A stretch of DNA of 31,613 nt from positions 1 to 31,613 of the forward strand of contig JAQCMZ010000385.1 of assembly GCA_028274825.1 (NCBI GenBank), in the 5' to 3' direction. The notes under the pieces were generated by a model. The model made no database searches and was not told the origin of the DNA. It worked only from the letters and a program-made list of their open reading frames with translations. This DNA is from Haloferacaceae archaeon (GTDB taxonomy: Archaea; Halobacteriota; Halobacteria; Halobacteriales; Haloferacaceae). Below, in pieces: positions 6,635 to 31,613 of the stretch. The first letter of the stretch is position 1, and the number at the start of each line of letters is the position of its first letter. Made by a program: the position numbers and the translations under genes.

Positions 6635-7211
6635 TTGACTTCCTCCCACAGCTAAAGCCGTGGGATTCCTCCGCGTGGGTGATTCAGGCCGTGCCTGTGC
6701 CACCGGAGGCAAGTTTCCCCTCACGGGTACTCCGGTTTGCGGATTCCTCTTTGGTCGACTGATCACGGTGTTGCCACCGGTGATCGTCCCACTCGAGGCA
6801 CTCGATTGAGTCCCTTGGACTGTTCTGCTCGCAGGCTGCGGGCCGAGCCATCGGCCCAGCTTGGACCACGTCCGTCTGCTCAACGAGGAAATTCACTGCT
6901 CCCACTACATCACTATGCCCCTCGAAATCGCACGAAAGGCACTGTAACAGGTCGCTGGACCGGTGAATGTCTTCACTCCCACACGACGGACACTTACTGG
7001 ACGTCCCGGCCTCGCTTTCCTCGTGGACGGTGGTTCCGCACTCACCCTCCAACACGTCCTCAAGCCGATCACGGAATCGGCCATGTGCCCAGAATAGGTC
7101 GGTTTTCTCGTTCACTGTCGCACTCCAGTGCTGTTCTCGCACATCGTCGAGTTTGCCGACGTACAGCTCGGTGACGCCCCGTTCGACGAGCCACCGAGCG
7201 AGCCGAAGCAA
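6635..7211 (-). mobile_element. IS200/IS605 element remnant with intact right end
   Basis: The tnpB 3' half is followed on the minus strand by hairpin CCCACGGC-TTTA-GCTGTGGG (6645-6664) and terminal GGAAGTCAA ending at 6635. Confidence 0.8.
6684..7211 (-). pseudogene. tnpB: 5'-truncated TnpB (IS200/IS605, IS1341-like) C-terminal fragment
   Basis: Contains LYVGKLDDV, EESEAGTSSKCPSC...CLSC zinc finger and RuvC-III-like HSDVVGAVN. The upstream in-frame sequence is unrelated and hits a stop at 7275-7277, so the N-terminal half is missing. Confidence 0.85.
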
Positions 7212-7420
7212 ACGACCGGAAGACAGTCGAACCCCGAGATCTGTAGGTCGGCAACGAATATCGGGATTCAGTTCTCAAAACCATAGTGGCGGATCGGCTG
7301 CCCATTATTTGTTAACAGTTTCTACTAACTATCGGTCGGTCGAATCGCCACACCATCTATATGTGTCGGTGCCACCGGCGAAGTGAGACAAGAATAGCTG
7401 AAACAGTGGTGGGGTTGGCA

Positions 7421-7447
7421 TAAGCGAGTTATTGGATAACTCGCTTA
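7421..7447. repeat. Perfect 11-bp inverted repeat TAAGCGAGTTA-ttgga-TAACTCGCTTA
   Basis: Read directly from the sequence. Confidence 0.9.
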
Positions 7448-7860
7448 CTGAACCCGCTTAACCACCCTATATCGGGGGTGATTTGGAGAAAATCAGTGCT
7501 TCTATAAGCGAATACTCAGGACCGAACCTGTGCACGGATACCGAGCAGACACTGGAGTGACCTCAACCGGCACGTTCCATGAACAGTAGTCGCTAGTGTG
7601 ATCTGTTTTTCAGTCATCATAGAACCGACCGTCGGTGACTGAGTCGCATCAACCTCTCGCCTGACAGTCTCCCGAATCCCACTCACTCCGCGAACCGAGC
7701 GGACGTGTCGACGGAGAGCCGGACTCAGCGATTTCTCTGGGCGCCGTAAGAGACGTCCTAAATCAGATTGAAATCCCGAGCCAGACAACTAGCGTGTTTC
7801 TTGCCGTCCAGTTCGTGGCGTCCCCAGTACTGCCGTGGGGGCCGGTGAGTAAACTACCGG

Positions 7861-8094
7861 CTATTGTGAGGTTCCAGGCCCACGCGACTCGGAATTAAGC
7901 CCGAGTGCTGCGTACATGGGACAGGTTCCCACCACCGCTGTAGCGAGAAATATTGTTGAGATGACCCCGAGTACTGGCGAGAGGATTTCCGGGAGCATGA
8001 TCGTCCCGGTGAGAATCGTCAGTGACACGATACCAGTGATTGCACCGAGCGTCGTCCTGAGTGCACGGTCTGTTGAGCCGACGTTGTTGTTCAC
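7861..8094 (-). CDS. DUF2892 (YgaP-like) small membrane protein
   Basis: From GTG 8094 the sequence reads MNNNVGSTDRALR...TAVVGTCPMYAALGLNS, matching the NVGxxDRxxR and CPxYxxLGI pattern. Two TM helices. TTTATAT lies 23-29 nt upstream on the minus strand. Confidence 0.8.
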   Translation of the reverse strand: MNNNVGSTDRALRTTLGAITGIVSLTILTGTIMLPEILSPVLGVISTIFLATAVVGTCPMYAALGLNSESRGPGTSQ

Positions 8095-8116
8095 ATATGC
8101 AGTGTGGCCCCCACAG

Positions 8117-8123
8117 ATATAAA
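8117..8123 (-). promoter_or_regulatory. TATA box of the DUF2892 gene (leaderless)
   Basis: TTTATAT on the minus strand at canonical haloarchaeal spacing from GTG 8094. Confidence 0.6.
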
Positions 8124-8353
8124 TGCAGTGTTGAGTTTCATGGACAACATTGTAACTCTGAAACGTCACTTGAGTCTTTAAAGACCCGTATATAAATTCT
8201 AAGATCACGGAGTATTGTATGTGATGTACAATATAATCTGTCACGACTGCGAACGTTCAGCATGTGAATGTGATTGAGATTGATACTGAGGGTACTCACA
8301 GTTCTATATTTCACACAGCCTCAGGATCAATGGAGAGCACTCCGTTAGCGGCC

Positions 8354-8827
8354 TCAGTTGACTTCGAGAATTTCGACTTCGAACTCAAGCGTCTCGCCTG
8401 CAAGCGCCGGGTTAAAATCGACGCGAACGACCTCATCGGTGACAGAAGTCACCTCTCCGCGCTGTCCGCTCTCCGCCTGAAGTTGGTCGCCCTCATCAGG
8501 CGTTTCCCCTCCGAGCATCTCCCGAAGCTCATCGGTATCGAGCTGTTGAACGCGGTCTTCGTCCCACTCGCCGTATCCTTTCTCTGGTGAAATAGTGAGT
8601 GTCTCTGTCTCGCCAGTTTCGAGACCAACCAGCCCCTCATCCATACCCTCAATGACCTTCCCAGCTCCAACCTCGACTGACAGAGCATCGAAGTTTCTGT
8701 CTGGCTGGGCGTCAGCCAAGCCGTTTTCTTCGGCAACCGCACGCCGGGAGGTGTCAAAGACCGTCTGATCGTCGCGTAATCGACCGATATATTCGAACGT
8801 CACATCGTCGCCAGTTGAGATTGGCAC
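8354..8827 (-). CDS. slyD: FKBP-type peptidyl-prolyl cis-trans isomerase (SlyD-like)
   Basis: GDDVTFEYIGRL...FDTS, VIEGMDEGLVG, PEKGYGE, VDFNPALAGETLEFEVEILEV. Confidence 0.9.
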   Translation of the reverse strand: MPISTGDDVTFEYIGRLRDDQTVFDTSRRAVAEENGLADAQPDRNFDALSVEVGAGKVIEGMDEGLVGLETGETETLTISPEKGYGEWDEDRVQQLDTDELREMLGGETPDEGDQLQAESGQRGEVTSVTDEVVRVDFNPALAGETLEFEVEILEVN

Positions 8828-9249
8828 ACTAGCGCTGGGGGCGCCACACCGGAAAATCCGTCGTATCGGCAGACATCCGCGATTGATGCTGGATCTCGTG
8901 GCTGTGCTGGCCTCGGATCAACGGTGACTGGACTTCGCATGGAATGAGAACAGCATCGCCAGACACTCACCCGAGACGCGCCGGTTGCCACCTGAAAAAG
9001 CCATCTCCTCAAACCGAGATGGCGTGGGGCGTCCATGTGGAAGCGCGACACTCAGGAGTCTACCGACAACCCCACGACGTGGCTCGTGGGCAACTGACAC
9101 GCGGATCAAGACCGGCTTTTCCCACTAATTCGTCTGTCGCTACGCCACAGCATATCTTGTTTGAGCTATCCTTGGTTGAACCCGTGAGATTCAGCGTAAC
9201 CTCCCGTTCAACCCGATAATACTGCTGTGATGGATGCTATCGGATACCT

Positions 9250-9861
9250 TCAGGATCCGTTATTTTCACCGGGAGATTCGTCTTCAGACGTGTCTTCCTC
9301 AGCACCATCGTCAGATTCCTCGGCCGAGTGGTTGTCTGATTCATCTGCCTGCATCTCCTCTTCGTCTGCTTCGGGTTGTTCCTCGCTGTCGTCTTCGTCT
9401 GCTTCGGGTTGTTCCTCGCTGTCGTCTTCATCTGCTTCGGGTTGTTCCTCGCTGTCGTCTTCATCTGCTTCGGGGTCCTTGTATTCACCAGTAACATCAA
9501 TCGTCACTGGTCCGTCGTCAGCGGTTTCGCCCTCGTCATCGTTTTCATGGGTTGTGGTGTGTTCTGCGTGAGTTTCTGTTTCGGCGTCGGATTCACTTTG
9601 CTTTTCGATCTCTCCGAGTGTGTATCCGACCACGTAGCCGGCCGACCCGCCAACGAGCGCTCCGAGGCCAGCCCCGAGTGGGCCTCCACGGGCGCCGAAC
9701 ACGGCTCCGGTGAATCCGCCGATACTGGCCAGCCGCTCGGCGTTTCGCTCGGGGGTGATGCCGTCTCCGTCGTGTGTATCGATATGCCCGCCGTCACCGT
9801 CGGTACCGTTGCCGTCGTGCCCGTGACTCTGGCCATGATTACTGTTGTGGTCGTTTCCCAT
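9250..9861 (-). CDS. Hypothetical acidic protein with His-rich N-terminus, glycine-zipper segment and 11-aa repeats
   Basis: The ORF from ATG 9861 has typical haloarchaeal acidic composition, GGFTGAVFGARGGPLGAGLGALVGGSAGYVVG and EQPEADEDDSE repeats. Confidence 0.7.
   Translation of the reverse strand: MGNDHNSNHGQSHGHDGNGTDGDGGHIDTHDGDGITPERNAERLASIGGFTGAVFGARGGPLGAGLGALVGGSAGYVVGYTLGEIEKQSESDAETETHAEHTTTHENDDEGETADDGPVTIDVTGEYKDPEADEDDSEEQPEADEDDSEEQPEADEDDSEEQPEADEEEMQADESDNHSAEESDDGAEEDTSEDESPGENNGS
9361..9474. repeat. 33-nt coding tandem repeat, ~3.5 copies
   Basis: The unit TTCRTCTGCTTCGGGTTGTTCCTCGCTGTCGTC starts at 9361, 9394 and 9427, with a partial copy at 9460. Confidence 0.9.
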
Positions 9862-10117
9862 GACTGCATCTACGGGTTCAACACTCCTATATGGCTCGTC
9901 CTTTGGCGCGAGTTTCATCACCACTGTATGGTGTGATTGCTGAAAGACCCACTGGGGCACCTGAACGGCGACGGTCTCTCGGGGTTACCGTGATTTCACA
10001 CTGAACTGTCTCGGGGCTACTCTCCTGGAACTCGTTTCGACCCGCTGGGAACCACTGTCGACCAGAGATGGCCATAATCGAGATCAAATTCTGGAACCCC
10101 GTTTTTGTGAGCTAGTA

Positions 10118-11428
10118 TCAGACCGGTCCGTGCGTCGCCTCTTCGGGGTCGTCGACAATCTCCATCCCTCGATTATTCACGGCATGCGGGTCGATTCCCA
10201 TGTCTTCCATCTCCTGTTTGTAGATGCGCTCGACGGCGTCGCCGTCTTTCTGCTTGTCGCTGGCACGGTCACACAACGCGATGAGTTCCTCGGGGACGTC
10301 ATCGGTGTCGACAATCCAGTGATTGATCAGATCGGAGAGCCGTCGGATGGGAGAGGTGAAGTGACCGTAGATATCGAAATTGAGCGCGTGATGGCCCCCG
10401 AACGGGTCGTTCATATATTTTGCACGCGGCATCACCTTCAGCACCGCTCGTTGGATCTTGTCGAGTTGCCGTTCCGGTGACTCCTCGAGTGCGCCGTTGA
10501 CTGCTTTTCGGGGGTCGTCCCCGTCCCACGCGGACCCGGGAATAGACACGCCGTTGAGTTCTTGAATCTCCTGAAGTGCGTCGCTCCACTGGTCAGGTGT
10601 CGGCTGTGGATGCACCCGATACATCGCTTCTAACCCTCGGTCCCACATCAACACGTGTGTGACCGCTTTGTTCGCCTTCAGCATCGATTCCTCGATGATG
10701 GTGTGGGCTCGGTCTCGACGGGGATTCAACACCAGTGAACCGTCCTCTTTCCGTTGTTCGTGCATCTGATTGGCCAGCTCGTAAGCCACCGTATTCTCCT
10801 CGTGGAGGGGTGATTCCTCGTCATCGAGTCGCCGCTCGCAATCGTTGTACGTGAGTCGTTCGTTCGAGCGGATTACAGACTTGTAGATATCGACACTCTC
10901 GAACGACAACGTCTCCTTGCTGATCTCCATCTCGACAGTGTGTGCGAGACGGTCTTCCTGCGGCACCAGCGAACAGACTGTCTCTGCCAGTACTGACGGA
11001 AGCATGTGCATCACGTGCCCGGGGAGATAAATCGTGTTACACCGCGAGACAGCCTCTTCCCACATCTGTGTGTCTGGATTCACGTAATGTGTGACATCTG
11101 CGATGTGAACCCACAGTCTGTACGCGTCTTCTTCTTCCTGAATACTGATGGCGTCATCGAAGTCCTCGGCATCCGAGGGATCGGTCGTCCAGGCGGTCAA
11201 CTCTCGGAGATCCTCTCGCTTTTGAGCCTCCGCTTCAATCTCTTCAGTCACCCCCTCGACACGGGCTTGGGCCTCTCGGAGCACTTCAGGCGGGAACTCG
11301 TCGTGGAGATCAAACTCTTCAAACAGTTCCTGTCGTTTCGATTCTAGCTTCTCGGCTCCCTCTTCAGTGACTTTCACGGGCCCCTGATAACTCGGTGATT
11401 GGGCGGCCGCTTGGGCGTCTTCACTCAT
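10118..11428 (-). CDS. rnr: RNase II/R (RNB-domain) exoribonuclease
   Basis: TTDPSDAEDFDDAIS catalytic acidic motif, VHIADVTHYV, IIEESMLKAN, HHALNFDIYGHFTSPIRRLSDL. Start moved to ATG 11428. Confidence 0.92.
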   Translation of the reverse strand: MSEDAQAAAQSPSYQGPVKVTEEGAEKLESKRQELFEEFDLHDEFPPEVLREAQARVEGVTEEIEAEAQKREDLRELTAWTTDPSDAEDFDDAISIQEEEDAYRLWVHIADVTHYVNPDTQMWEEAVSRCNTIYLPGHVMHMLPSVLAETVCSLVPQEDRLAHTVEMEISKETLSFESVDIYKSVIRSNERLTYNDCERRLDDEESPLHEENTVAYELANQMHEQRKEDGSLVLNPRRDRAHTIIEESMLKANKAVTHVLMWDRGLEAMYRVHPQPTPDQWSDALQEIQELNGVSIPGSAWDGDDPRKAVNGALEESPERQLDKIQRAVLKVMPRAKYMNDPFGGHHALNFDIYGHFTSPIRRLSDLINHWIVDTDDVPEELIALCDRASDKQKDGDAVERIYKQEMEDMGIDPHAVNNRGMEIVDDPEEATHGPV

Positions 11429-11568
11429 ACTCAGATATAGCGGGTTTCCCACAAAGACCTGTCGGGGGGACTGACAACCCCGCATTCGTCTCGTGACGGC
11501 TACTTTTGACTTCGTCTCACCTCACCTCACCAGTCGGGCAAAAAACACGACGGAACTGATATCGAAAT

Positions 11569-11892
11569 TCACCGCCCGTTATTCTGGTTTTCCACGGCAG
11601 TGATATACCGCGAGAGGAAGTCCTCTCTCGACGGGTGCTCGGACTCGGGATCTGTTGCCGAATCAGCGGCGGCATCAGACTCGATTGAAATCAGGAGCGA
11701 TTCGAGACCATCGCGTGGCTGATGACACAGTTTCGCGTGGCACCCATTACAGAGGAATTCGAATTCCTTGCCGAGACGATCCCATCGATCACCTTCCTTG
11801 TCGTATTCTCGTGCGTCAGCACGTTCAACACTGTCTCCACACGCGATGCACACTATCATCTGTTCATCCCGGTCTCGCCGGGAACTCCACAT
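11569..11892 (-). CDS. Small conserved haloarchaeal Zn-finger-like protein (CxxC...CxxC)
   Basis: MWSSRRDRDEQMIVCIACG...FLCNGCH...PRDGLE, acidic. Start at ATG 11892. Confidence 0.75.
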   Translation of the reverse strand: MWSSRRDRDEQMIVCIACGDSVERADAREYDKEGDRWDRLGKEFEFLCNGCHAKLCHQPRDGLESLLISIESDAAADSATDPESEHPSREDFLSRYITAVENQNNGR

Positions 11893-12246
11893 GTGCGAGC
11901 TCACGTATGCTTTGTACTTATCCGTTTCGAGGCTTCCAATTATCATCCACCAGCGAGTTGTAGAGTCGCGATTCACTCACTCGGCGAGATCTCGACCGAG
12001 TGAGTCGATACCGTCTCTCACAAAGACTGTCGCGTTCGCTGGCAGTTACGGGACACTGACCCACTGCTGGAGGATATCCCCAGCCATGGCGAGTTCCAGA
12101 ACGGGATGGTCTGCGACGATGCCTGTGTGAGACATTGCCGCCGACGGCACAGATCCAACCCTCTCACACCGGCCGTACACGATTCTCGACCCGTCACCTG
12201 ACCTGAAACGGGGCGATTTATGCCGAGCGAGAGCGTCCTACCACGC

Positions 12247-12726
12247 ATGCAAGTCAAATCGAGACACCATCTCCGCAGCGACGGGGTGCAAGAGATTCGC
12301 GAGACGCTTGCTGCTGGTCTTGATGTCAATATCTCGGGGGATTCTTTTGAACTTGTGGAACTCGAGGGAACCGATTTCGACCTCGTACTGGTCGACGGTG
12401 AGCCGCTCGTCTTCTATGCTAACGAGGAACCGTTTCTCTCGGTGAAAGGTGCAAACACCTACGATCCCGATTCTCACGTCATCACGGTCGATACTGGTGC
12501 GATATCGTTCGTCTCCGACGGTGCAGACGTGATGCGGCCCGGAATCGTGGACGCAGATACTGATATTACTGCGGGCGATCTCGTCGCGATTGCCGAGGAA
12601 AGTCATAACAAAATCCTGGCAATCGGCCGAGCGCTCGTCGACGGTCCCGCTCTCGCCGGTGACTCGGGAAAAGTTGTCGAATCAGTCCATCACGTCGGTG
12701 ACGATCTCTACGAATTCGGGATCTGA
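12247..12726 (+). CDS. PUA-domain RNA-binding protein (MCT-1/Tma20-like, DUF1947+PUA)
   Basis: MQVKSRHHLRSD, VDTGAISFVSDGADVMRPGIV, GKVVESVHHVGD. TTTA at 12217-12220 supports the leaderless start at 12247. Confidence 0.88.
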   Translation: MQVKSRHHLRSDGVQEIRETLAAGLDVNISGDSFELVELEGTDFDLVLVDGEPLVFYANEEPFLSVKGANTYDPDSHVITVDTGAISFVSDGADVMRPGIVDADTDITAGDLVAIAEESHNKILAIGRALVDGPALAGDSGKVVESVHHVGDDLYEFGI

Positions 12727-12924
12727 TTGTCACACAACGGGATTGTGCCCTTTTGTTCTGTCTCGACGGCGGCGAAGCGACCGCCGACTTCCCCAGTAGT
12801 GGGATAACGCCAACACCGATTCGTATACACGTGTTCTACGCGAGTGTCGACCGGTGAATTCACACAGTTCGTGTTACATCTGGAGTGGATACGTGATATG
12901 CTGTCGTGGGACCGCTACAGGAGA

Positions 12925-12967
12925 AACGCGGGGAGAGTCCACGGCTTTAGCCGTGGGAAGATATCAA
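12925..12967 (+). mobile_element. Solo IS200/IS605-type right end (TCAA class)
   Basis: CCACGGC-TTTA-GCCGTGG hairpin followed by GAAGATATCAA. About 40 nt align with the 6635 right end (ACGCGGxGxAxxCCACGGCTTTAGCyGTGGGA). Confidence 0.75.
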
Positions 12968-13321
12968 TCAGGCTCACGACGGCTACATGCGGGTCTCTTC
13001 AGTTTCACTCACACGCCATAGTGGACCTCCCGTGGCTGCCTCGATAGTGACAGCGAGACTGTAGACCGACCGTGATGAGTACACCATTCAACTCTACCCC
13101 GATGAGCAGCCACTGTCAGAATCACGCTCAAAACTGCTCGTATGAGCGTCTCTCGCGAATCGTGTGGGGTTTGTTCCTGTTCCTATCCCACTGTGCTGCT
13201 CACCTCGCCGTAGTGTTTTTCACATCGATGAGTCCCCCGCAGAGGCTGATCACCCATCGCGGCCGGAACTCTTCTCAAAAAGAGAGTTATCTTTAGGTCT
13301 CAACACATAGATTGCCCAACT

Positions 13322-14083
13322 ATGACTGAGACACGGGTACTATCGTACAATGTCCGTCACGCAGACGCCGACGACGGGCATGACCGGTGGTACAACCGGC
13401 GTGACGCCGTGGGCTCTCTGCTCGGGGCGCACGCCCCCGACATCTTCGCTCTTCAAGAGGCACTCTCCGAACAGACCGCTTTTCTCGACGATCAACTCGA
13501 AACGTACCGATTTCTTGAGGGGGCTCCTGATGGACACGCAGAGGGATGCCCGATTGCGTGGCGGACAGATCGGTTCGAGCGTGTCGACGACGGCATTTTC
13601 TGGCTCTCTGAAGCCCCCGAAGCGGAGACACCTGCTGCCGGGTGGGACGGCAGATACTCCCGGATCGCCGTCTGGGCCCGACTCCAGGACACTGACGGGG
13701 AGTTTCTCGTCATGAATACACACTTTGATCACCGTGGGGACCGGGCTCGCCGCAAGAGTGCAGCTCTGATTCGTGACCGACTTCAGAATCTTGCTGCCAG
13801 TATTCCCTCACTGCTCGTGGGCGATCTCAACTGCACCTCTGGAGCCGATCCGTACGACATTCTCACAGAACAACTCGCCGATGCAGCTGACGAAGCAGCT
13901 GTTCGCCACGGTCCGACGACATCGCTGACCGACTTCAGTCGTCTTCTGCTCAACCGTCGCATTGATCACATTCTGGCCGACGGATTCGAAGTGGCCGCGT
14001 TTGCAACTCTCAGCGACCGGGACGACCGCGGCCGATATCCCTCGGATCATCTCCCGGTGATGGCTCGACTGCAGCGGCCATGA
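13322..14083 (+). CDS. Endonuclease/exonuclease/phosphatase (EEP) family protein
   Basis: LSYNVR, DIFALQE, NTHFDH, LLVGDLN, RRIDHI and PSDHLPV catalytic motifs. Confidence 0.9.
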   Translation: MTETRVLSYNVRHADADDGHDRWYNRRDAVGSLLGAHAPDIFALQEALSEQTAFLDDQLETYRFLEGAPDGHAEGCPIAWRTDRFERVDDGIFWLSEAPEAETPAAGWDGRYSRIAVWARLQDTDGEFLVMNTHFDHRGDRARRKSAALIRDRLQNLAASIPSLLVGDLNCTSGADPYDILTEQLADAADEAAVRHGPTTSLTDFSRLLLNRRIDHILADGFEVAAFATLSDRDDRGRYPSDHLPVMARLQRP

Positions 14084-14213
14084 GCGGTATTCGGTGGGGA
14101 TCGACCAATCCATTGGCGTGTCAACACGACTGTCAGTCTCGATAGCCGGCCACCGGCGACGGATTCAGTATCCGTTCGCAGTCTCGACTTCTGACGTGCC
14201 CCCGTGACTGACA

Positions 14214-14927: not shown

Positions 14928-15638
14928 AGATGAATAGAGTTATTCTGAGGGAAAAAGTCGGGCGATTAAGCACCGAAAGCGGTAGACGAGCGGGTCAAAT
15001 ACTCTGAGATTGTGCCCCCGACGGCTCTCCTGGTGCAGCGCGAACCTATCAACCCGGCGGCGGCGATTTATCCAGTCTCACCCGATCAATTCATCCGCTG
15101 ATATCCTCCCCTCGCTGTACTGGCTCGTGAGCGGGTTTGAACAACTGGTGTGGTGTGACACAGTCGATAGCGCCTCTGAGTCACACTTGTGAGTTCCCCA
15201 ATAGGGACCGGGACACCCCTTCACCAGAGGTCAGTGATATCTGTGGAGTGGCCAGGAATCACCGTTCTATAGGCGGAACAGGCCGAGTGTGAGGGGTCGG
15301 ACGGAACTCTTCGAGGAGTGATGACGAGAATCGGCGATTCTCGACGGATGCCCCCGAGGGTGAAGGCCGTCGAAGGATTCATTCAACCACGTGACGGAGC
15401 AGGAGCGAGCGGCTGTGACGGATATTGAAGACCTCAGTATGAAACAGTCGCTCGACAGTGTGAAACGTGGCTTCTCTCAAGACCCGCCGCTGGCGGTGCG
15501 ACGGGAGTTGTCGGGTCGTGGTGGAGCGACCTCCACGGACACATCGGTGTGTTCGGGTGTGAATTCCAGCCGGCTCCTCACGGACAACGTTGAGGGCAAT
15601 TACAGTCTGTCGCTGGTGCAGTGCGGCCCTACACACGG

Positions 15639-15670
15639 AAGCCTCGGGGCTTGTCCCCGAGGGACTTCAC
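15639..15670 (+). mobile_element. Solo IS200/IS605-type end (TCAC class)
   Basis: AAG-CCTCGGGG-CTTGT-CCCCGAGG-GACTTCAC, the hairpin plus short tail pattern typical of haloarchaeal IS605-family ends. Confidence 0.7.
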
Positions 15671-15734
15671 ACCGGCTGTGGTATGTCTCCTGTCTGACGT
15701 AAGAACTAACACTCCGACCCAGCGAATTAATGCT

Positions 15735-20019: not shown

Positions 20020-20204
20020 AGGTAACTCGCTGGAAAACGAGCGATCAGCGAGCACCTGTGACTCACGTGGACTGATGGGATCCTGACCTAAGATTGGCCC
20101 TGTCGGCTCCGTCCGAGGACAGGACGAGATGTGCCCAGACCAGCGTCCCGACTCGAAGGTGACTGTTGGATCTGGGTGAATCGCAAGCGCTCGTGGAATA
20201 CACA
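20020..20204 (+). ncRNA. Structured 5' leader of rpl15e (probable eL15 r-leader)
   Basis: GAAGCCTTTAGAA promoter-like motif at ~19989-20001. Hairpins CCTGTC...GACAGG (20099-20123) and CCCAGA-CCAGC...GTTGG-TCTGGG (20134-20176). A euryarchaeal eL15 leader motif has been described, but the match was not computed. Confidence 0.55.
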
Positions 20205-20787: not shown

Positions 20788-20920
20788 CGTCTCACGAGTC
20801 CCTCCGACTCCCTCCCAGAACGCTATCTGAGAAAGAATGTGGTGTGGGGCTTTCAGATCGGGAGCGCGACACTTGAAATTCCCATCGACAAACCCACGAC
20901 TTCAGTCGTGGGTTGCTGAC
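20788..20920 (+). mobile_element. Non-autonomous IS200/IS605 3'-end module (omegaRNA/sotRNA-like)
   Basis: Ends in AACCCACGAC-TTCA-GTCGTGGGTT-GCTGAC and encodes the TnpB-like C-terminal tail DKPTTSVVGC*. Aligns by eye over ~130 nt with the reverse complement of 31404-31613. Confidence 0.75.
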
Positions 20921-21452
20921 CGTCTGCTTTCATCTTACAATCTCAAACGTCCAACTTCTAGGCTCTCGATTACCCTTCATCGGGCAACATAGCGACTCTC
21001 ACTCCCCTTGAGCAGAATTCTCTGAATCGCTCTCTTAGCAGTCTGTTTGATATGATCTACTGTATCTGTCCGTTCTCATACGAAGTGCGCGAAGAGCCGC
21101 GTTGAGCAACGCTTGTGGACACAGGAGAGAGTGAAATATGCAGATCTCAGTCAGACGTCTCTGACTGGTCCACGTCGGTTTCTGTGCGTGCGGGTGGACT
21201 AGGACATCCAGGAAGCATTGCAGAGTACACATCCGCTTCACCATCACGAGTAGTATCGGATCTCTTCGAGGACATAGCCTATGACAGCGCATTATCACGC
21301 CAATAACAATAATTTCGACATCGATTGCACACATTGAAACTGGGCAGCAATAGAGAGCGAACCAGAACCCCGCCTTCTTGAGAGGAACTGCTCTGTTAGA
21401 TCGTGTGACCCGGGACACGCACCACTCGGGTCTGACTCCCACAGGTGGTTAC

Positions 21453-21497
21453 GTGAGGGGTATGAGGGGTGTGAGAGGTGTGAGAGGTGTGAGGGGT
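21453..21497. repeat. 9-nt tandem repeat x5 (RTGAGRGGT)
   Basis: GTGAGGGGT ATGAGGGGT GTGAGAGGT GTGAGAGGT GTGAGGGGT. Confidence 0.9.
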
Positions 21498-21585
21498 GTG
21501 ACACACCGAACGTGGAACGTACTCGATTTGGCGGAATCTCGCGGGAAATCCTGGAGTTCTTTTCTGTTCGGTACTACCGGTGTGT

Positions 21586-23808: not shown

Positions 23809-23954
23809 TGTCCTCCACGGGTGAAACTGGGTGTTTTTGCCCTGTTCTACTGGAAGCCACAGAGAGTTCGTTGCCCGACGAGGCGGTCTGTCGAGCCACA
23901 CGCCACAATCAGCCCCGTATCGAACGCTGCAGACCCCAGACGACGGGCCGAACT

Positions 23955-25061
23955 CTATCTGTCTGTCTCTGTGGGATACGCAGGGAGCCGGGCTGACGGC
24001 TTACCGCCGTCAACGAACGGGAGATCGACCCGAGTCGCTGGTAGTTCTTCGCCGTCGATACGTACTGCCAGCGCCTCGGTGTCGGCACCCGACTTGAGAA
24101 ACGCAAGCGCGATTGGCGTTTCTTCAGTCGGGCTCTCGACGGCGTGTGTCACTTCACCGACAGCGGCGTCGCCGGCGAACACTGCGGCGCCTGACTCGGG
24201 AAGCTTCTCTGGCCGAAGCCCGACGACTCGCTTACTCGGCCGACCGCGATTTTCGACCTTGGAGACGACTTCTTGACCTACATAACAGCCCTTCTCGAAA
24301 TCGAGCGCGTTCCGGAGTCCCACCACGTTTGGGATCTGGTCTCGAATTCCCGTGTGAAACAGCGGGGTTCCGGCTTCTGCTGCGAGGATCTCGTAGCTAT
24401 CGTAGCCGAACGGAGCGGCATTGTATCCGCGGGTGAGAAGCGTCTCAAAGATCGCAGGCGCGTCGTCGGCACCACAAACAACCTCGTAACCTTCCTCGCC
24501 GAGCAGCCCGTCAGTCGCGATTACCGTCACTCCGACAGAGTCCATCCGTCCACGGACGAATGTCAACCCCGGCTCGGGGGCGCCGGCACCGTTGAGTACC
24601 GAGGCAATCTTCTCTGTGGAGGCAGCCCCGTGAACGCCGAACACCCCGAACTCGGTGGTCGCGTCACGGATCTCGACATCCTGGATGAAGATTTTGCCCT
24701 GCCAGTCGTCGACGAGAGGTGTCACCCGGTCCGGCGGGACGAACAACAATAACCGCTCGCCAGCGTTGTAGATGTACAGTTCCGTCTCGATGGAGCCTTG
24801 TGGGTCGAGCAACAGCGCGTACGTCCCGTCCCCGTCGGTGGTCGGGACGCGGTTTGAAACCGCGTTGTCGACGTAGTCCACGCGATCGTCTCCCTCGATG
24901 ACGACGACTCCGTACCCCATCTCGATCACGCCAGCGCCGTTTCGAACTGCCAGTGCCGCACTCTCTGGCCGGCCGTAATTGGCGACAACCGAACGGCCTC
25001 CGTGGTCCCGGTACACTGCTCCGTGATCGTCGTGCAGTTCACCGACAAGTGTCATGTCCAT
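23955..25061 (-). CDS. Folate-binding aminomethyltransferase-like protein (YgfZ/GcvT family)
   Basis: DRVDYVDNAVSN, LLLDPQG, FEKGCYVGQEVVSKV (KGCYxGQE YgfZ motif). The start may be at 25061 or 25055. Confidence 0.88.
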   Translation of the reverse strand: MDMTLVGELHDDHGAVYRDHGGRSVVANYGRPESAALAVRNGAGVIEMGYGVVVIEGDDRVDYVDNAVSNRVPTTDGDGTYALLLDPQGSIETELYIYNAGERLLLFVPPDRVTPLVDDWQGKIFIQDVEIRDATTEFGVFGVHGAASTEKIASVLNGAGAPEPGLTFVRGRMDSVGVTVIATDGLLGEEGYEVVCGADDAPAIFETLLTRGYNAAPFGYDSYEILAAEAGTPLFHTGIRDQIPNVVGLRNALDFEKGCYVGQEVVSKVENRGRPSKRVVGLRPEKLPESGAAVFAGDAAVGEVTHAVESPTEETPIALAFLKSGADTEALAVRIDGEELPATRVDLPFVDGGKPSARLPAYPTETDR

Positions 25062-25190
25062 TTAGAATCGTTCCGAGAGGAAAAACACGCCGGGTATCGA
25101 CAAAACAGACGGGCGTTGTCTGCATCGCCAGACTACTCGTCTGATACTGGTTGCACGCTGGATCTCCTCTCAAGTTACAGCTGCAGCAAG

Positions 25191-25225
25191 GCGAAAGCCA
25201 CCGGCTTCAGTCGTGGGCAGTTGAC
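25191..25225 (+). mobile_element. Degenerate solo IS200/IS605-type right end (TGAC class)
   Basis: GAAAGCCACCGGC-TTCA-GTCGTGGG-CAGTTGAC. The 3' arm CTTCAGTCGTGGG is identical to the 20900-20912 copy and the 5' arm is partly mismatched. Confidence 0.65.
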
Positions 25226-25235
25226 CGGCGTATCC

Positions 25236-25535
25236 TCAGAGATCGAACTTCTGCCGGAATCGGTCGAACAGACCGTCCTCGTGGATAGTCTTCTCGTCGG
25301 AGTCGGGGACGACCTTGTCATGTGGGAACACTCGGACGGTGTCACCGTCTCTTTCAACACGAATCAGCCCGTCACGTTTCAACTCTGACAGCGCTGTTTC
25401 GATAGTGTCGATATTGCTGTCGACGGCCGCTCGGAGTTCGAGAACTGTCATACCGTCGGCCACGCGGTCACAAAGGGCGTCGAGTACCCTGACCTGCTCA
25501 TCTTGGCGATCCCGAAACTCGTCTCTGGCCTCCAT
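25236..25535 (-). CDS. Small conserved haloarchaeal winged-helix-like protein (DUF6432-like)
   Basis: MEARDEFRDR...GMTVLELRAAVDSNIDTIETALSELKRDGLI, acidic. Start at ATG 25535. Confidence 0.75.
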   Translation of the reverse strand: MEARDEFRDRQDEQVRVLDALCDRVADGMTVLELRAAVDSNIDTIETALSELKRDGLIRVERDGDTVRVFPHDKVVPDSDEKTIHEDGLFDRFRQKFDL

Positions 25536-25746
25536 ACAATTGTATTCTGTCGGCGATGGCTTACGTGTACCGCCACGGGACTTTCCGCCAGTCACCACGC
25601 ACACTCACCTGACAAGCGATCCCAGCCCGTCGCACTGGGAGCTAATTGAGTTCTATCTTGCTACCCTGTGAACACGGGGTTGTTCGAGTCAGCCGTCCGT
25701 CAGACACGACGGGGATTTTTTACCGTAGCGAGTCGGATGCCAACCA

Positions 25747-26904
25747 ATGCGACTCAGGTGTCTGCTCGGACACAACTTCGGGACTGCCGAAATCGAACGG
25801 GAACGAGAAGAGGATGGAAACCAGGTAGTCGTTACCGTCCAAGAAACAAAGCAATGTCAACGCTGTGACAAACGTCTCGTGATTAGCGAGAGCAAAGAGG
25901 TGACATCCGTCGACCAACTAACCAAAGCAGCAAACGGAACAGTCGATCCGCGTAATCCAGATACTGACGTCGAGCCTGACACGGCTACCGATTCTGGCGC
26001 CGAGTCGTCATCGGCAGACCCTCCGGTGTCTACCGTCTCTGACTCGGCTGAGATCCCCGATGCCGAACCGGAACGCGAATCTGCATCTGACGCCACTCGC
26101 GACAGCGACTCCGTATCAGCTGACACCACGGGAGATGAAGAGGCCATCACTGATGTCTCCGACGACGCCGCAATCATTCTCGACGACGAGGACGACCCTG
26201 AGTCTGAGCAGCCGGATTCGACGGGAGACTCCGAGCCCGCAATGACAGCGGATTCGCCTCGCCAGAGTCAATCCGGCGCGGAGACTGAATCCGAACCTGC
26301 CAGGCCGAATCTATCCGGTATCGAGGCCAGCGCTGAGACGGGAGTGGATTCTCAGTCAGACGATGGCGTAATTCTCGATGACGAACCGACGACCGACCCT
26401 GCCGACCGAGGTCCTGGCGAGTGGCCCGAACCCCCCGATCAAGAGAGTCAGACTGACGATGATAGCTCATCCCAACCCGATATCCAGCAAGAGTCACGGA
26501 CCGAGGATTTCGAGCCGTGGCCGGAGCAAGTGGGCGAGGATGAGGGATTTAACGCCGAGGCGGACACCGGGAATCCGTCGGCCGTCTCGACTGACACTGC
26601 CAGCGGCCTGCCAGCCGAGGACGGGCAAGACGGAGCTGGATCGACTGGATTCCAGGGTGAATCCAGAGACACTACGCCCGAACAACCCACCACTGTGGAC
26701 GATGTACACACCGGTGTCGAACGAACGGAAGCTGGGGTCGCCCACTCGAACCCCCCAGATGCCGATGCGGAGTCTGCTGGCGTCACTCTCGAGTATCTCT
26801 GTCCGGACTGTGGACACGTCGAACAAGTGAGAAACAGCCCACTGCGTGCCGGTGACATCTGCCCGGAATGTCAGCGCGGGTTTATTAGCGAACGACGAGT
26901 CTGA
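25747..26904 (+). CDS. Acidic, largely disordered haloarchaeal protein with Zn-ribbon-like motifs at both ends
   Basis: N-terminal CLLGH...CQRC and C-terminal CPDC...CPEC, with a D/E/S/T/P-rich linker. TTTTTACC TATA-like at ~25716. Confidence 0.75.
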   Translation: MRLRCLLGHNFGTAEIEREREEDGNQVVVTVQETKQCQRCDKRLVISESKEVTSVDQLTKAANGTVDPRNPDTDVEPDTATDSGAESSSADPPVSTVSDSAEIPDAEPERESASDATRDSDSVSADTTGDEEAITDVSDDAAIILDDEDDPESEQPDSTGDSEPAMTADSPRQSQSGAETESEPARPNLSGIEASAETGVDSQSDDGVILDDEPTTDPADRGPGEWPEPPDQESQTDDDSSSQPDIQQESRTEDFEPWPEQVGEDEGFNAEADTGNPSAVSTDTASGLPAEDGQDGAGSTGFQGESRDTTPEQPTTVDDVHTGVERTEAGVAHSNPPDADAESAGVTLEYLCPDCGHVEQVRNSPLRAGDICPECQRGFISERRV

Positions 26905-27204
26905 GCCCGTTACTGAATCAGGGCTAACAGCGACCGAACCGGTCTAAGTGAGATCAATTCCCAATATTCGTGCTTTCGAGAACTCGATCTTGCGGACTCT
27001 GTGGGCTGGTGAAGCCGTCGGATTCGGGGGCGTTCTGCTCCGCGCCAACGCCACTCTGTGTGACCCTATCTGATCATCCAAGTTGTCTTTCGGCATCGAG
27101 TACCACCCACGGTCAGCACACGAAAACGAAAGGATGAAACAGCTCATAACACCTTGCTAGAATCGCATGGCACGTGAGTACGGTATCAGCCCACAATGGG
27201 TGAC

Positions 27205-27218
27205 GAAAGCGGTTTACC
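27205..27218 (+). promoter_or_regulatory. BRE/TATA promoter (leaderless) of the 27241 gene
   Basis: GAAAGCGGTTTACC at canonical spacing. Confidence 0.6.
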
Positions 27219-27240
27219 ATCTGCTATCAAACGACGAAGT

Positions 27241-27624
27241 ATGAAAGAATACAAAATGCGTCGGGGAGAGTATCTCGACGATCGGGTACCGGATCTGAAA
27301 GGACTCATCGAGGAGCACTTCGGCAGTGTGAACGGGACAGAAGATGTGAGCGGACACCAACTGTACGTCATCCCAGATCCAGATAACCCAGTTTTCGAGC
27401 GCATCTTGGCCGGGAAATCCGAATACGACGGAAAAAAAGACAGACTCATGGTCCAGTTTGAGGAGCGCGATGCTGAAGACGTGATTGCTGATGGCGACGC
27501 TGACGCAGCCGCCGAGGCAGTAGATCTCAAGAATGGCTTCCTGAAGCAAGTGACTGACCGAGACGCGAAATCGCGACGTGATTCGATGAAACGAGCTGTC
27601 GAAGACGAGGCCCCGGACTTCTGA
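27241..27624 (+). CDS. Conserved archaeal hypothetical protein (DUF5611-like)
   Basis: MKEYKMRRGEYL...AVDLKNGFLKQVTDRDAKSRR. GAAAGCGGTTTACC (BRE/TATA) lies 28 nt upstream of ATG 27241. Confidence 0.8.
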   Translation: MKEYKMRRGEYLDDRVPDLKGLIEEHFGSVNGTEDVSGHQLYVIPDPDNPVFERILAGKSEYDGKKDRLMVQFEERDAEDVIADGDADAAAEAVDLKNGFLKQVTDRDAKSRRDSMKRAVEDEAPDF

Positions 27625-28076
27625 ATCACGGCCGAGACTTTTTTCACTGCCGTCAAGACCGGGCACAGTCTAGCTTCAGTAGTGACTGGCATCATGATCA
27701 GCCTCGATACACGAACCTGCACAATCTGAATATGGAACACCCGCATGCGCGTTCAGGCCTGAGTACTGCCGATTGAATCATCGACAATTGTTGACAAACT
27801 CCGGTTGAGCGCCCGGGAGTGTGCTCCGAGACAATCTGCCGACACCTCTCGCCGAAGTTTCGCCCACTTTACCGTCACACGCTGGCGAGCCCCCGATCTA
27901 CCGACCTATTTCGGTTACTCCGTCACAGCCTTCTCGTGACAGCGAGGAAATCCCGCCACTCACGATGGCCGACAATATCTAACCCTCATCGTTTGCAGAG
28001 CGAACGGACCCGCCTCCGGCGATACCGGTCGAACAGCCCGCGACACCCTCAAACCAGTCGATCCCTGATAGATTGT

Positions 28077-29585
28077 ATGCGTCGACGTGACCTGCTCCAG
28101 ACCGGGGCTGGTGTCGGGCTCGGAATCGGGACTGGAGTCGGAGCGGTTCCGATTGGCTCGGCCACCCGTGTGACCCGCGGGTCACACAGCGAGACCACAG
28201 AGCCGTACGAGCCCCTCGCTAGACTGGAGCTTGACGCCGCCTTCGAGGCAGTCATGGGTGAAGACGGACAGTTCACGTATCTCGCGACCGGCGACGGGTT
28301 CGTGAGTGTTGATGTTTCAGACCCCGCTGACCCGCGTATTCTCACACGGGTGCGTGATGTTCTCGCCAACCGAGACGGCGGGCCGCTCCACCTCGTTTGG
28401 GACCTGAGCGTGGATGGCGATGAGCTCATCCTCGTGGGACCGGCACACCGCCGTGATGGGGCTTTCCGGGCAGTCGCACAGTTTGACATCTCAGACCCAG
28501 CGGCACCAGTATTCACTCGTGCGGTCGAAACCGACTATACAATTCATAACGGTCATCTCGCGGACGGGTACGCGTACCTCACGGCCACCGATGGCCGCCA
28601 GAATCCACTGGTGATCGTTGACTTACAGTCGGGATCAGAGATTGCCCGCTGGTCGGTGCGCGACTACGATGACCGCTGGAGCGAGGTCGATCCATCGCTG
28701 TATCCGATCCACGATGTGCACGTAACTGGCGATATCGCATACGTCTCCTACTGGGACGCAGGGGTGCAGTTGGTAGATATCTCAGACCCCACCGCACCGA
28801 CTCACCTGTCGACAGTCGGCGGGCAAGATCCCGCAGACCTCAGAGGACTCGCCAAAACGGCGGTGAATCTGCAGGCGACGACACCGCCGGGGAACGCACA
28901 CTACGCAGCCCCCGGTGAACAGGGGGAGCTATTGGCAGTCAACCACGAAGCGTGGGCGGCGACTGATGGCTCTGATCTCGTGGGCGCTCCCGGTGGAATC
29001 GATTTATTCGATATTTCAGACCCCCAATCCCCCCGGCATCACGCAACTATCGACCCGCCAGAGTCATCCGATCCTACACGCCAGGGCGTCTGGACCAGTT
29101 CACACAACTTCGAACTCCGGGGAGACAGACTCTATTCGTCGTGGTACGAGGGCGGTGTGCGAGTGTACGATATTGCGTCGCCAGACTCACCACAGCAGAT
29201 TGCCGATTGGCGGGACCCGGAGACGGCGAGTTTCTGGACTGCACGAGCCGGTGTTACTGATGAATTCTACATAGCCAGCAGTACGGGCTACCGCGCGGAG
29301 CCAGCCCTGTTCGTCTTTCCGGATCGGGCAGGCGAACAGCCCAATCAGCCGTCGTTGATTGCGTCGACAGGCGGGACCACTGACAATGATCGCACCGCTG
29401 AGGAAAACGCCGAGTCGGGTGCCCCATCGTCAGTAGCGACGGACGGGTCTCCTCCCGACGATGCGACGGTATCAGACGACAGTGTCTCCGACTCAGCGCT
29501 TGGGTTTGGGGTCGGGACTGGGGTTGCCGCCCTCGGTGGGGCCGTGTGGTGGCTCCGAACTCGACTCGGAACTGACGATACGTAG
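28077..29585 (+). CDS. Tat-exported LVIVD-repeat (beta-propeller) cell-surface protein with C-terminal TM anchor
   Basis: MRRRDLLQTGAG twin-arginine signal. Repeats DVSDP, DISDP, LVIVD and YDIASP, then a Ser/Thr/Asp linker and LGFG + TM + basic tail. The upstream extension to 27819 looks non-coding. Confidence 0.82.
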   Translation: MRRRDLLQTGAGVGLGIGTGVGAVPIGSATRVTRGSHSETTEPYEPLARLELDAAFEAVMGEDGQFTYLATGDGFVSVDVSDPADPRILTRVRDVLANRDGGPLHLVWDLSVDGDELILVGPAHRRDGAFRAVAQFDISDPAAPVFTRAVETDYTIHNGHLADGYAYLTATDGRQNPLVIVDLQSGSEIARWSVRDYDDRWSEVDPSLYPIHDVHVTGDIAYVSYWDAGVQLVDISDPTAPTHLSTVGGQDPADLRGLAKTAVNLQATTPPGNAHYAAPGEQGELLAVNHEAWAATDGSDLVGAPGGIDLFDISDPQSPRHHATIDPPESSDPTRQGVWTSSHNFELRGDRLYSSWYEGGVRVYDIASPDSPQQIADWRDPETASFWTARAGVTDEFYIASSTGYRAEPALFVFPDRAGEQPNQPSLIASTGGTTDNDRTAEENAESGAPSSVATDGSPPDDATVSDDSVSDSALGFGVGTGVAALGGAVWWLRTRLGTDDT

Positions 29586-29652
29586 TCAATACTGGTTACA
29601 CACCCTCATCTGAAACGCAAGGTATCCAAAGGGTGGGCTGTAATAATAAGTA

Positions 29653-29979
29653 ATGAGTAACGAAACCCTGAAAGAACGAGTAGAGCAGTGGATGGTCGGA
29701 CAGATGCCGATTATTCAGATGCACGGGGGAACGAGTGCTGTACGTGAGGCTGATCCGGATACTGGCGAGGTCGTCGTCGAACTCGGCGGGACGTGTTCTG
29801 GATGCGGAATCTCTGATGTCACTGCGAGCAATATCCAACGCGATCTCATCTTGGAATTCGACGATATCCAAGACGTTCACGTCAAGGTTCCATCGACCGG
29901 TGGACAGGGATCCGCTACTGTCGAGGGTGGCCGTGGCGGTGACCTCAAACACGAGACGGAATCGAGTAACCACTTCTGA
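29653..29979 (+). CDS. NifU/NfuA C-terminal domain Fe-S scaffold protein
   Basis: [22 protein letters not shown] (CxxC), IQDVHV. Confidence 0.85.
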
Positions 29980-30238
29980 ATTGTTCAACTCTGTGCGTCT
30001 GTTGGCCCACCCGGATTCCTTTTGCTGGCTTTCAATTACCCGAACTAACCAGTGCCTTCCGTAATTGGCTGATTTCGGTGGCCCCCGAAATCTGTCTGCC
30101 GTCTCAGTTAGAATCCGACCGAATTATCCGGGCAATACTCAGGCTCCTCGAGCCCGGTGATCTGTGGACGACACTGAATAGATACGACGGTTCAGACGTG
30201 ATAGATCAATATCCGAAGTGGTCGGGCGCCGAGCCGTG

Positions 30239-31360
30239 TCAGGAGAACAATCGCTTCAGTTGATCACGCGAAAACAGCGTCGAGGGGCGATCCATGTGTA
30301 CCCCAATCTCCCCGGAAAGAGAGCGAAGCCCGAGCCGTTGGACAGGCTTCGGCAGAGAGTAACACCGCCGCACCCAGCGGCCGAGCCGAATCTCTTCTGC
30401 CAACTCGTCTCGCCACCCGGACTCGTACTCCGCGAGCGTGGCTGGACGGTCAGGATCGATCCGCTCGGCAGCAATGTCAGCGGCCGTCATTCCGTAGAGA
30501 ATCCCACCGCCGGTGAATGGCTTCGTCTGGGCGGCTGCATCACCAATCAGGAACGTCCGGTGACCGGTCACCTGCGATGGAGGGCCAACCGGGATGAGTC
30601 CCGAACAAGTGTTACTGGTCGAAACCTCGTATTCGTCAGTCAGTTGATCGAACATCTCGGACACCGCCGTTCCTGGCGGCGCGCCAAGCCCGTATTCGAC
30701 CCCTGCGTCTCCTCGGGGGATCCGCCATGCGAAAAACTCCGGCGCAGTCAGGTGGACATCAACCCGGTCGCCGTGATCGGGGTCGGGATCGAACGCAAGC
30801 ACACCGTGCAGGAATTCGTCTGGGCTTGGAAGGTCGACCTCCTGACGTACCCGAGAATTCGGCCCGTCACAGCCAGCCACCATTCGCGCCTCTATTTCAA
30901 CGGTATCGGTCGGGTTGTCGGCCCCAGACCCGGCTATCGAGTCGGCATCGTCTGCCACGGCCACTTCCAGGCGCACACACTCGTCGCCGTCGTCGACATC
31001 CGTCACCGTATGCCCCTCTCGAACGTCCGCTCCGGCGTCACGAGCACAATCGGCCAGCGTTCGGTCGAGTTCCACCCGGTCGATCACGTTCGAGATTTCT
31101 CGTTGCTTGTAGAATGGATACGACCGAGAGTCCGGACCGTCGATGTGGAATCTGGCCCCGTAGATCCGGTTCTGAAAGAGTCGTTGTGTAGCCGTCTCGG
31201 GGACGTACTCCCAGATATCGGTCGAAACGTGGCCCGAACAGGCTAACGGCTCTCCGAGTCGGCCCTTCTCCAGCGCAAGCACGTCGTAGCCTGCTTCCGC
31301 TGCTCGTCTTGCGAACCGCGCTCCTGGCGGCCCAACACCGACCACGACGAAATCATACAT
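30239..31360 (-). CDS. Geranylgeranyl reductase-family FAD-dependent oxidoreductase
   Basis: MYDFVVVGVGPPG Rossmann motif, LACSGHVS, IDRVELDRTLA, GCDGPNS, LIGDAAAQTKPFTGGGI. Start at ATG 31360. Confidence 0.88.
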   Translation of the reverse strand: MYDFVVVGVGPPGARFARRAAEAGYDVLALEKGRLGEPLACSGHVSTDIWEYVPETATQRLFQNRIYGARFHIDGPDSRSYPFYKQREISNVIDRVELDRTLADCARDAGADVREGHTVTDVDDGDECVRLEVAVADDADSIAGSGADNPTDTVEIEARMVAGCDGPNSRVRQEVDLPSPDEFLHGVLAFDPDPDHGDRVDVHLTAPEFFAWRIPRGDAGVEYGLGAPPGTAVSEMFDQLTDEYEVSTSNTCSGLIPVGPPSQVTGHRTFLIGDAAAQTKPFTGGGILYGMTAADIAAERIDPDRPATLAEYESGWRDELAEEIRLGRWVRRCYSLPKPVQRLGLRSLSGEIGVHMDRPSTLFSRDQLKRLFS

Positions 31361-31403
31361 ACACATATCCAGTATCTGCTGATATAATAGTGATTGGAAC
31401 TGT

Positions 31404-31613
31404 GTCAGCTCCCCACCCGTAAACGGGTGGGCTTGTCGGTGGACTCGCAAGTGTCGTGCTCCACAGGCGGACAGCCCCACGCCCATTTCTTTCGAAACCC
31501 GGGCTTTCTCAGGCGGCTTCCAGCAGGGGAGTCAGAGGGACTCGTTCAGTATCCCCAACTTTAAGCCTGACAGACTGCCCGTCTCACCGGCCGCTTCTGG
31601 GCCTGTGAGACGG
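31404..31613 (-). mobile_element. IS200/IS605 3' end (decayed tnpB tail plus right end), continuing beyond the window
   Basis: The minus strand ends AAG-CCCACCCG-TTTA-CGGGTGGG-GAGCTGAC. It contains a TnpB-tail-like ESTDKPTRLRVGS* and an upstream AQKRPVRRAVCQ/LKLGILN broken by a frameshift or stop. Confidence 0.75.

Follow-up and report, generated by a model that had tools for sequence, protein, structure and literature searches.

Scattered IS200/IS605 right ends in a Haloferacaceae contig are probably the ends of gene-less PATEs, the long forms of which carry a putative omegaRNA scaffold

Introduction

Palindrome-associated transposable elements (PATEs) were defined in Haloquadratum by Dyall-Smith et al. 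2011 (PMC3119063). There, a TnpB element of 1.5 kb, ISHwa23, is reduced to a 52-bp PATE by deletion between its end palindromes, and small repeats insert into PATE palindromes (PMC3119063). In H. salinarum, Gomes-Filho et al. 2015 described a right-end-like UUCA tetraloop (PMC4615843) as well as a transcribed PATE RNA in which left-end sequence is fused to a right-end stem-loop (PMC4615843). Meers et al. 2023 noted PATEs that encode omegaRNAs and would need TnpB in trans (PMC10055086). Here we analysed a stretch of 31,613 nt (hereafter the window), which is contig JAQCMZ010000385.1 of the Haloferacaceae archaeon assembly GCA_028274825.1. An earlier note had pointed out six dispersed hairpin-plus-tail modules in this DNA, numbered here as sites 1 to 6 in window order. 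The note took them for IS200/IS605 right ends, mostly without a tnpB gene, and explained their survival by non-autonomous RNA-encoding elements or by co-option.

We find that these modules are very probably the ends of non-autonomous IS200/IS605 (IS1341-group) derivatives at various stages of reduction and decay, i.e., PATEs, a kind of element already described in Haloquadratum and Halobacterium. Three forms are present: long PATEs (300-400 bp; site 3 and the site 6 family), minimal PATEs of ~50 nt (sites 2 and 5), and truncated relics (site 1, site 4, and a seventh module).

Right-end modules in the window

All six modules were recovered at the positions and on the strands reported, namely 6635-6664 (-), 12939-12967 (+), 15639-15670 (+), 20891-20920 (+), 25191-25225 (+), and 31404-31434 (-); the seventh, at 8978-9098 (+), had been overlooked. 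The module layout comprises an 8-bp CC...GG stem, a TTYA or CTTGT loop, and an 8-10-nt tail ending in TCAA, TCAC, or TGAC. Because the identical layout lies directly 3' of 22 tnpB open reading frames (ORFs) in this genome, after the stop codon, the modules can be regarded as true IS200/IS605 right-end-type modules, in agreement with the assignment made earlier. A strict scan of the 3.37-Mb genome returned 170 right-end-type and 138 left-end-type modules, compared with 2 and 6, respectively, in a first-order-Markov simulated genome of equal size and matched composition.

The modules were also described as intergenic and mostly free of tnpB, and both statements stand. All sites are intergenic relative to Pfam-supported genes, and the sole tnpB remnant is that at site 1 (6684-7211, -). 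A tblastn search with the 22 TnpB proteins of the genome found nothing significant in the 405-bp element of site 3, the 298-bp element of the site 6 family, or site 4, and a Pfam search of the ORFs overlapping these gave no match. Likewise, cmscan of the window against Rfam (gathering threshold, and E<=5) returned no HgcC or related family; at E<=5, the matches were confined to an eL15 leader and two at chance level.

Left ends and end fusions

In both the tnpB elements and the repeats of this genome, the left end consists of a target motif of TTAC/TCAC/CTAC type, ~20 nt, the right-end palindrome, and a ATGAAGCCGAC-like sequence. A left end of the IS200/IS605 kind, with the same palindrome ~20 nt past a target motif and no target duplication, is found at sites 2, 3, and 5 and in full copies of the site 6 family. 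Site 1, site 4, and the seventh module are truncated and lack it. The earlier statement that no left end could be recognised therefore fails for sites 2, 3, and 5, the first and last of these also by hidden Markov model (HMM), and for site 6 by family.

The same picture emerged genome-wide. A census based on strict stems and regex-defined flanks found right-end-type tails on 178 hairpins and left-end-type 3' flanks on 150. Left ends are thus about as frequent as right ends, which is the outcome that the earlier note itself had named as speaking against its idea of preferential survival of right ends, and at least three of the six modules have a left end.

Among the right-end-tailed hairpins, at least 23 carry a left-end-type 5' flank and are minimal fusions. 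Such a flank accompanies none of the 32 tnpB-linked right ends but 114 of the 150 left ends, against a random-sequence background of 3%. The minimal fusions include several small, near-identical sets at different loci, a hint that some of them may still be mobile. Since left-end and right-end profiles both match each of them, sites 2 and 5 are fusions, of 49 and 47 nt, of both ends around a single palindrome.

Taken together, the elements have the properties of PATEs: they are multi-copy, with sharp boundaries, unrelated flanks, and presence/absence polymorphism, and they have no transposase or TnpB coding capacity, apart from the remnant at site 1.

Two further observations concern the ends in this genome. 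A fourth left-end class is abundant (~56 or more copies, none in the window) and reads TTATAG, 20 nt, CCACGCCG, TTCA, CGGCGTGG, and then ATACGCGCCGTCAC (e.g., C6:6459 and C103:5900; contigs of the assembly are given as C and a number). Furthermore, an insert of ~57 nt with its own inner hairpin (TCGGACGG...CGAGAATCGGCGATTCTCG...GGATGA) sits within the loop of CCTCGGGG/CCCCGAGG palindromes at ~60 places in the genome (window 15293-15359; C402, C83, C143, C22), where left ends and right ends as well as minimal fusions contain it. Small mobile repeats with PATE palindromes as their targets are known from Haloquadratum, and the insert is reminiscent of these.

RNA scaffold of the long families

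The long families are without any TnpB coding remnant, and their 3' 170-230 nt form the part most conserved across sub-families. RNAalifold on a mixed alignment (A1) gave a near-empty consensus; the structure of the scaffold present at sites 4 and 6 was instead folded from a 12-sequence subset and counted on a 19-sequence alignment. With this fold, 82% of the cells were paired, compared with ~40% when the partners were slid. Changes on both sides of a pair occurred in 77 cells (20-30 with slid partners), and the covariation score was 0.20 (0.06-0.08).

A covariance model (CM R1) of this scaffold had 34 matches in its own genome and 18 in a genome of the same genus, and it matched 26 of the 61 genomes of the taxonomic family. 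At 15 of 19 loci from other genera, the matches overlap the 3' end of a tnpB ORF on the same strand. The same-genus genome also contains tnpB-linked matches, one of them beside an intact tnpB frame of 393 aa. When tnpB-linked homologues were included (alignment A3, fitted to the model), 93% of the cells were paired, with 168 both-side-change cells against 20-36 in slid controls, and 39 pairs had changes on both sides against 11-21. Helices 7-9, an inner branch of ~50 nt, are present in the PATE copies of the site-4/6 type and absent from the tnpB-linked homologues.

The site 3 family behaves similarly. Its 3' region has 116 nhmmer matches in the genome, three of which lie directly after a tnpB TNB domain (C28, C106, C316), and compensatory change is seen in 19 of its 31 predicted pairs. 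Both scaffold families also have a long-range helix between an internal segment and the last 5-6 nt of the right-end tail. This tail helix joins A1 columns 54-59 with 258-263 (GUCAGC/GCUGAC) and A2 columns 107-111 with 294-298 (GUGGA/UUCAC); it may be the pseudoknot-like closing helix of an omegaRNA, or a DNA-level guide for TnpA cleavage.

Hence, both features looked for in an omegaRNA, i.e., homology to the tnpB 3' end and right end and the presence of compensatory changes, were found in the long families, where covariation clearly exceeded both shuffled and slid controls, and sites 2 and 5 retain the terminal hairpin only. Because it overlaps the 3' end of intact tnpB genes in other genomes, we assign the ~170-220-nt region of the long PATEs as the putative omegaRNA scaffold of the parental elements. 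The earlier suggestion of non-autonomous RNA-encoding elements is therefore supported for the long families by scaffold, covariation, and tnpB-linked homology, and the compensatory changes on which it had been made to depend occur in the scaffolds of both. It does not extend to the 50-nt fusions with their hairpin only. We rejected the idea of a promoter in the A/T-rich patch that precedes helix 1 in the 298-bp family, as helix 1 covaries in the tnpB-linked homologues and a start within it is therefore improbable.

These data also bear on whether all modules are simply neutral debris, i.e., functionless decay of dead insertion sequences whose structure reflects the single-stranded DNA needs of TnpA or recent ancestry. 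Decay is certainly visible: site 1 is a truncated pseudogene that is further eroded in sister strains, the stem of site 5 is degenerate, site 4 has internal deletions, and many tnpB copies in the genome are fragments. However, the long families comprise dozens to >100 copies with sharp ends, some of them 92-98% identical, which points to recent amplification. Moreover, the compensatory changes extend over ~170 nt, far past the palindrome bound by TnpA, and are common to tnpB-linked homologues in other genera. We therefore consider neutral decay unlikely as an account of all modules.

Individual sites

Site 3 (15266-15670, +) is a complete PATE of 405 bp including the target motif TCTAT. A left-end flank (15271-15289) is followed by a left-end palindrome with the ~57-nt loop insert (~15293-15359), the 3' 230 nt constitute the structured scaffold, and the right-end hairpin (15642-15662) precedes the tail GACTTCAC. 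Both boundaries are sharp and common to many copies with unrelated flanks. Site 6 (31404-31613, -) is a member of a ~298-bp PATE family, cut by the contig end so that its 3' 210 nt remain, with the scaffold and the right end. Its hairpin occupies 31412-31431 and its tail GAGCTGAC ends at 31404. The sequence is 95-98% identical to ~13 full copies with a left end (e.g., C339:6567-6864) and scores 220 bits with CM R1.

Sites 2 and 5 are each single-copy. At site 2 (12914-12967, +), a minimal PATE of 49 nt (12919-12967) follows the target motif GCTAC at 12914-12918. The order is GCTAC, a 20-nt left-end flank, one hairpin, and the right-end tail AAGATATCAA, and the sequence fits the layout of the left ends of tnpB elements. 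The left-end HMM matches 12915-12958 and the right-end HMM 12928-12966. The flank to its right (window 12968-13010) resembles another degenerate right-end hairpin and has 14-18-nt matches to right-end regions elsewhere, such as C326 and C429; this suggests nested or adjacent relics. At site 5 (25174-25225, +), a minimal PATE of 47 nt (25179-25225) follows the target motif GTTAC, again with a left-end flank, a degenerate hairpin with two mismatches in its stem (25198-25217), and the tail CAGTTGAC. Here, the left-end HMM gave E=2e-6 (25174-25217) and the right-end HMM E=6e-4 (25188-25225).

The remaining three modules are relics. Site 1 (6635-7211, -) is a tnpB pseudogene that has lost its 5' part but keeps its right end. 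It comprises ~175 C-terminal codons (6684-7211), then the hairpin (6645-6664), and lastly the tail AGGAAGTCAA, with its end at 6635. The reading frame has a Pfam Cas12f1-like_TNB match and aligns by tblastn with residues 267-439 of the 441 of a TnpB from the same genome (C48) at 60% identity. A left end was sought upstream to 7870 and was not found. The seventh module (8978-9098, +) is a ~120-nt 3' fragment of the site-4/6 scaffold family without a left end, with its hairpin at 9071-9090 and its tail CAACTGAC ending at 9098. It was recognised by nhmmer (E=3e-17) and CM R1 (67.8 bits, E ~1e-16), and it overlaps a spurious ORF of 91 aa. Site 4 (20790-20920, +) is a ~130-nt fragment of scaffold plus right end, with internal deletions and without a left end, and begins ~13 nt past the rpl15e stop codon. 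The hairpin lies at 20893-20912, followed by the tail TTGCTGAC; nhmmer matched 20794-20919, and CM R1 gave 89.7 bits over model positions 57-218. Both site 4 and the seventh module belong to the same superfamily as the site 6 family.

Gain and loss among related genomes

The window is syntenic over 7860-31360 with the same-genus genome (G001), with 70-84% identity in genes. None of modules 2-6 is present in the corresponding spacers of G001, where the intergenic DNA is too diverged for exact empty sites to be aligned; the spacer at site 3 is ~505 nt shorter.

Strains roughly 95% identical were compared through metagenome contigs. Related strains lack 6652-7757, with 5-nt microhomology at the junction and half of the site 1 hairpin plus the tail left behind; given this junction, the absence is a deletion. 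In addition, related strains have 67 nt (letters unread) in place of the 404-nt body of site 3. At site 5, related-strain contigs span the site and no listed joint has adequate support; a joint 25056->25353 was disregarded, as it has 23 nt of support on one side only. These differences between strains and species show that the modules are gained, lost, and eroded over short timescales rather than held in place. The notion of modules kept by the host is thus contradicted by position, with sites 2-6 absent from the same-genus genome and sites 1 and 3 deleted or replaced in sister strains.

Related strains (runs X2-X4) also have an extra right end near ~13189, the last ~29 nt of which are identical to those of site 4. 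It adjoins sequence homologous to 13189-13214 and represents a strain-specific insertion in the spacer of site 2.

Guide targets and possible host functions

If right ends had been kept without left ends or tnpB as co-opted trans-acting guides (TldR-like) or regulatory RNAs, one could readily understand the density of seven modules per 31.6 kb with one tnpB remnant, a scaffold structure conserved with compensatory changes, and the position of site 4 just past the highly expressed rpl15e in the same orientation. Overexpression of PATE RNA has also been found to improve growth of H. salinarum (PMC4615843). However, sites 2, 3, and 5 and the site 6 family have left ends, left-end-type and right-end-type hairpins are about equal genome-wide, and the 50-nt units hold the terminal hairpin only, with no scaffold.

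The guide flanks lead to the same conclusion. The 20-nt flanks 3' of the right ends match only themselves, except for the flank of site 2, which resembles a degenerate right-end hairpin; in searches of the own genome, no second target was found beyond such repeat-derived matches. Neither is there a sign of the nuclease-dead TnpB expected of a TldR-like system: the TnpB on C485, the only copy of this genome examined, retains its catalytic D-E-D triad. Considering further that the positions are not common to the same-genus genome, that half of the site 1 hairpin is deleted, and that site 3 is replaced in sister strains, we regard co-option as trans-acting guides, which the earlier note had put forward as one possibility, as very unlikely; nothing points to host use.

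The note had also mentioned terminators and processing sites, and the hairpins might serve neighbouring genes in either role. All modules are intergenic and several are near gene ends, for instance with ~13 nt between rpl15e and site 4 and 10 nt between the DUF6432 stop codon and site 5. Yet no U-tract follows the stems, the modules point in either direction relative to neighbouring genes, the counterparts of these genes in the same-genus relative do without modules, and the modules belong to multi-copy mobile families with unrelated flanks. Nothing indicates such a use by the host, and this role is hardly credible.

A different possibility starts from the PATEs themselves. With at least 150 family hits in this metagenome-assembled genome (MAG), scaffold-bearing PATEs far outnumber intact tnpB genes. 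Dozens of different omegaRNAs encoded by PATEs might be loaded in trans onto a few TnpB proteins and constitute a working distributed guide set. We regard this as possible but doubtful; if true, such a set could serve element retention or possibly host-level effects like the growth effect in H. salinarum.

Host genome and neighbouring genes

The window (C160) is the longest of the 543 contigs of a MAG of 3.37 Mb with 57% GC that is 62% complete. Its relatives are Haloferacaceae and Halorubrum, and of the named genomes, the Lake Tyrrell MAG 'uncultured archaeon A07HR60' is closest. DNA runs containing the stretch come from hypersaline-lake metagenomes; a search for RNA runs with this DNA found none. 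The host, a haloarchaeon whose genome is crowded with PATEs, belongs to the A07HR60 genus (Haloferacaceae).

The genome also encodes potential helpers. The TnpB TNB domain has 67 matches, ~22 of them in frames of >=338 aa, and the TnpB on C485 has intact RuvC D-E-D residues and an intact zinc finger. The Y1 TnpA domain has eight matches, one of which is full length and adjoins tnpB on C439. The stem of the left-end palindrome in this tnpA+tnpB element equals that of the site 6 right end.

Genes in the window are ordinary haloarchaeal housekeeping genes. Upstream of rpl15e lies the Rfam eL15-Euryarchaeota leader (20099-20187, +; 36.2 bits, gathering threshold 33.7). Two other places vary between strains: at 21440-21535, which contains a tandem repeat of GGTGTGAGRGG type, one related strain has 32 other letters for 67 nt, and at 9372-9442, within an unannotated ORF of 236 aa (9250-9960, -), 69 nt are swapped for 30 letters in one related strain.

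Proposed life cycle and significance

We propose that long PATEs keep the left end, the right end, and the ~170-220-nt omegaRNA scaffold that overlaps the tnpB 3' end in the parents. A Y1 TnpA acting in trans would excise them and insert them again, in single-stranded form, 3' of a TYAC/CTAC-type motif. Probably, the scaffold and the flank next to it are also expressed as an omegaRNA; guided by this RNA, a TnpB from another locus could cut the donor site again once it has been emptied, so that the element would be retained; selection would therefore act on the element and not on the host. Minimal PATEs most likely originate by recombination between the directly repeated palindromes of the left and right ends, which deletes the core. 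These short forms and the fragments are probably inert and in the course of erosion.

Several points weigh against this interpretation. Transposition, transcription, and TnpB loading are deduced from sequence. The left end of site 6 is taken from copies of its family, the contig ending before it. A search of the 543-contig MAG for an intact tnpB cognate to the site-4/6 scaffold gave only remnants, on C204 and C375, a negative that carries no information at 62% completeness. Lastly, fitting of alignment A3 to the model biases the covariation count, and the strict stems and regex-defined flanks of the census lead to an undercount of both end types.

Apparent orphan right ends in haloarchaeal genomes are, on this interpretation, usually whole miniature elements or end fusions whose left ends are easily overlooked. 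The locus adds a well-documented case of gene-less IS200/IS605 derivatives that keep a covarying, putative omegaRNA scaffold, and it is relevant to the question of whether guides encoded by PATEs routinely program TnpB in trans. The PATE families explain much of the fragmentation of the MAG and, in annotation, should be masked or labelled as PATEs.

Comparison with known systems

The elements most closely resemble the PATEs of Haloquadratum walsbyi. Like these, they are free of protein-coding genes and of inverted terminal repeats, with near-terminal palindromes as in IS605-type transposons; they include ~50-bp fused termini explained by inter-palindrome deletion as well as small inserts in palindromes; and they occur in a haloarchaeon at high copy number with strain-variable presence. 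They differ in belonging to another genus (the A07HR60 lineage) and to other sequence families. Going beyond the 2011 study of H. walsbyi, the long PATEs described here show a covarying scaffold homologous to the tnpB 3'-end region.

A second parallel is offered by the sense overlapping transcript RNAs (sotRNAs) of H. salinarum and the PATE-derived intergenic VNG_R0052, which share the 8-bp stem with a UUCA or UUUA tetraloop, located at the tnpB 3' end and in intergenic PATEs. VNG_R0052 shows the very arrangement of sites 2 and 5, with a partial left end joined to the 5' side of the right-end stem-loop. While the H. salinarum RNAs are transcribed and have a growth phenotype on overexpression, the elements in this window are known from DNA sequence alone.

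PATE-like elements of the IS605 family in Geobacillus stearothermophilus are also gene-less, have both ends, and keep the omegaRNA, with TnpA and TnpB proposed to act in trans. In that case, the host is bacterial, the TnpB belongs to another clade, and the activity of the parental elements is experimental, whereas here it is deduced. Finally, the scaffold resembles the omegaRNA (reRNA, right-end element RNA) of ISDra2-type TnpB in overlapping the tnpB 3' end and the right end, in having several stems that end in the right-end hairpin, and in its long-range helix with the last 5-6 nt before the guide. This likeness is one of layout, and the site-4/6 PATE versions have an extra inner branch of ~50 nt (helices 7-9) that the tnpB-linked homologues lack.

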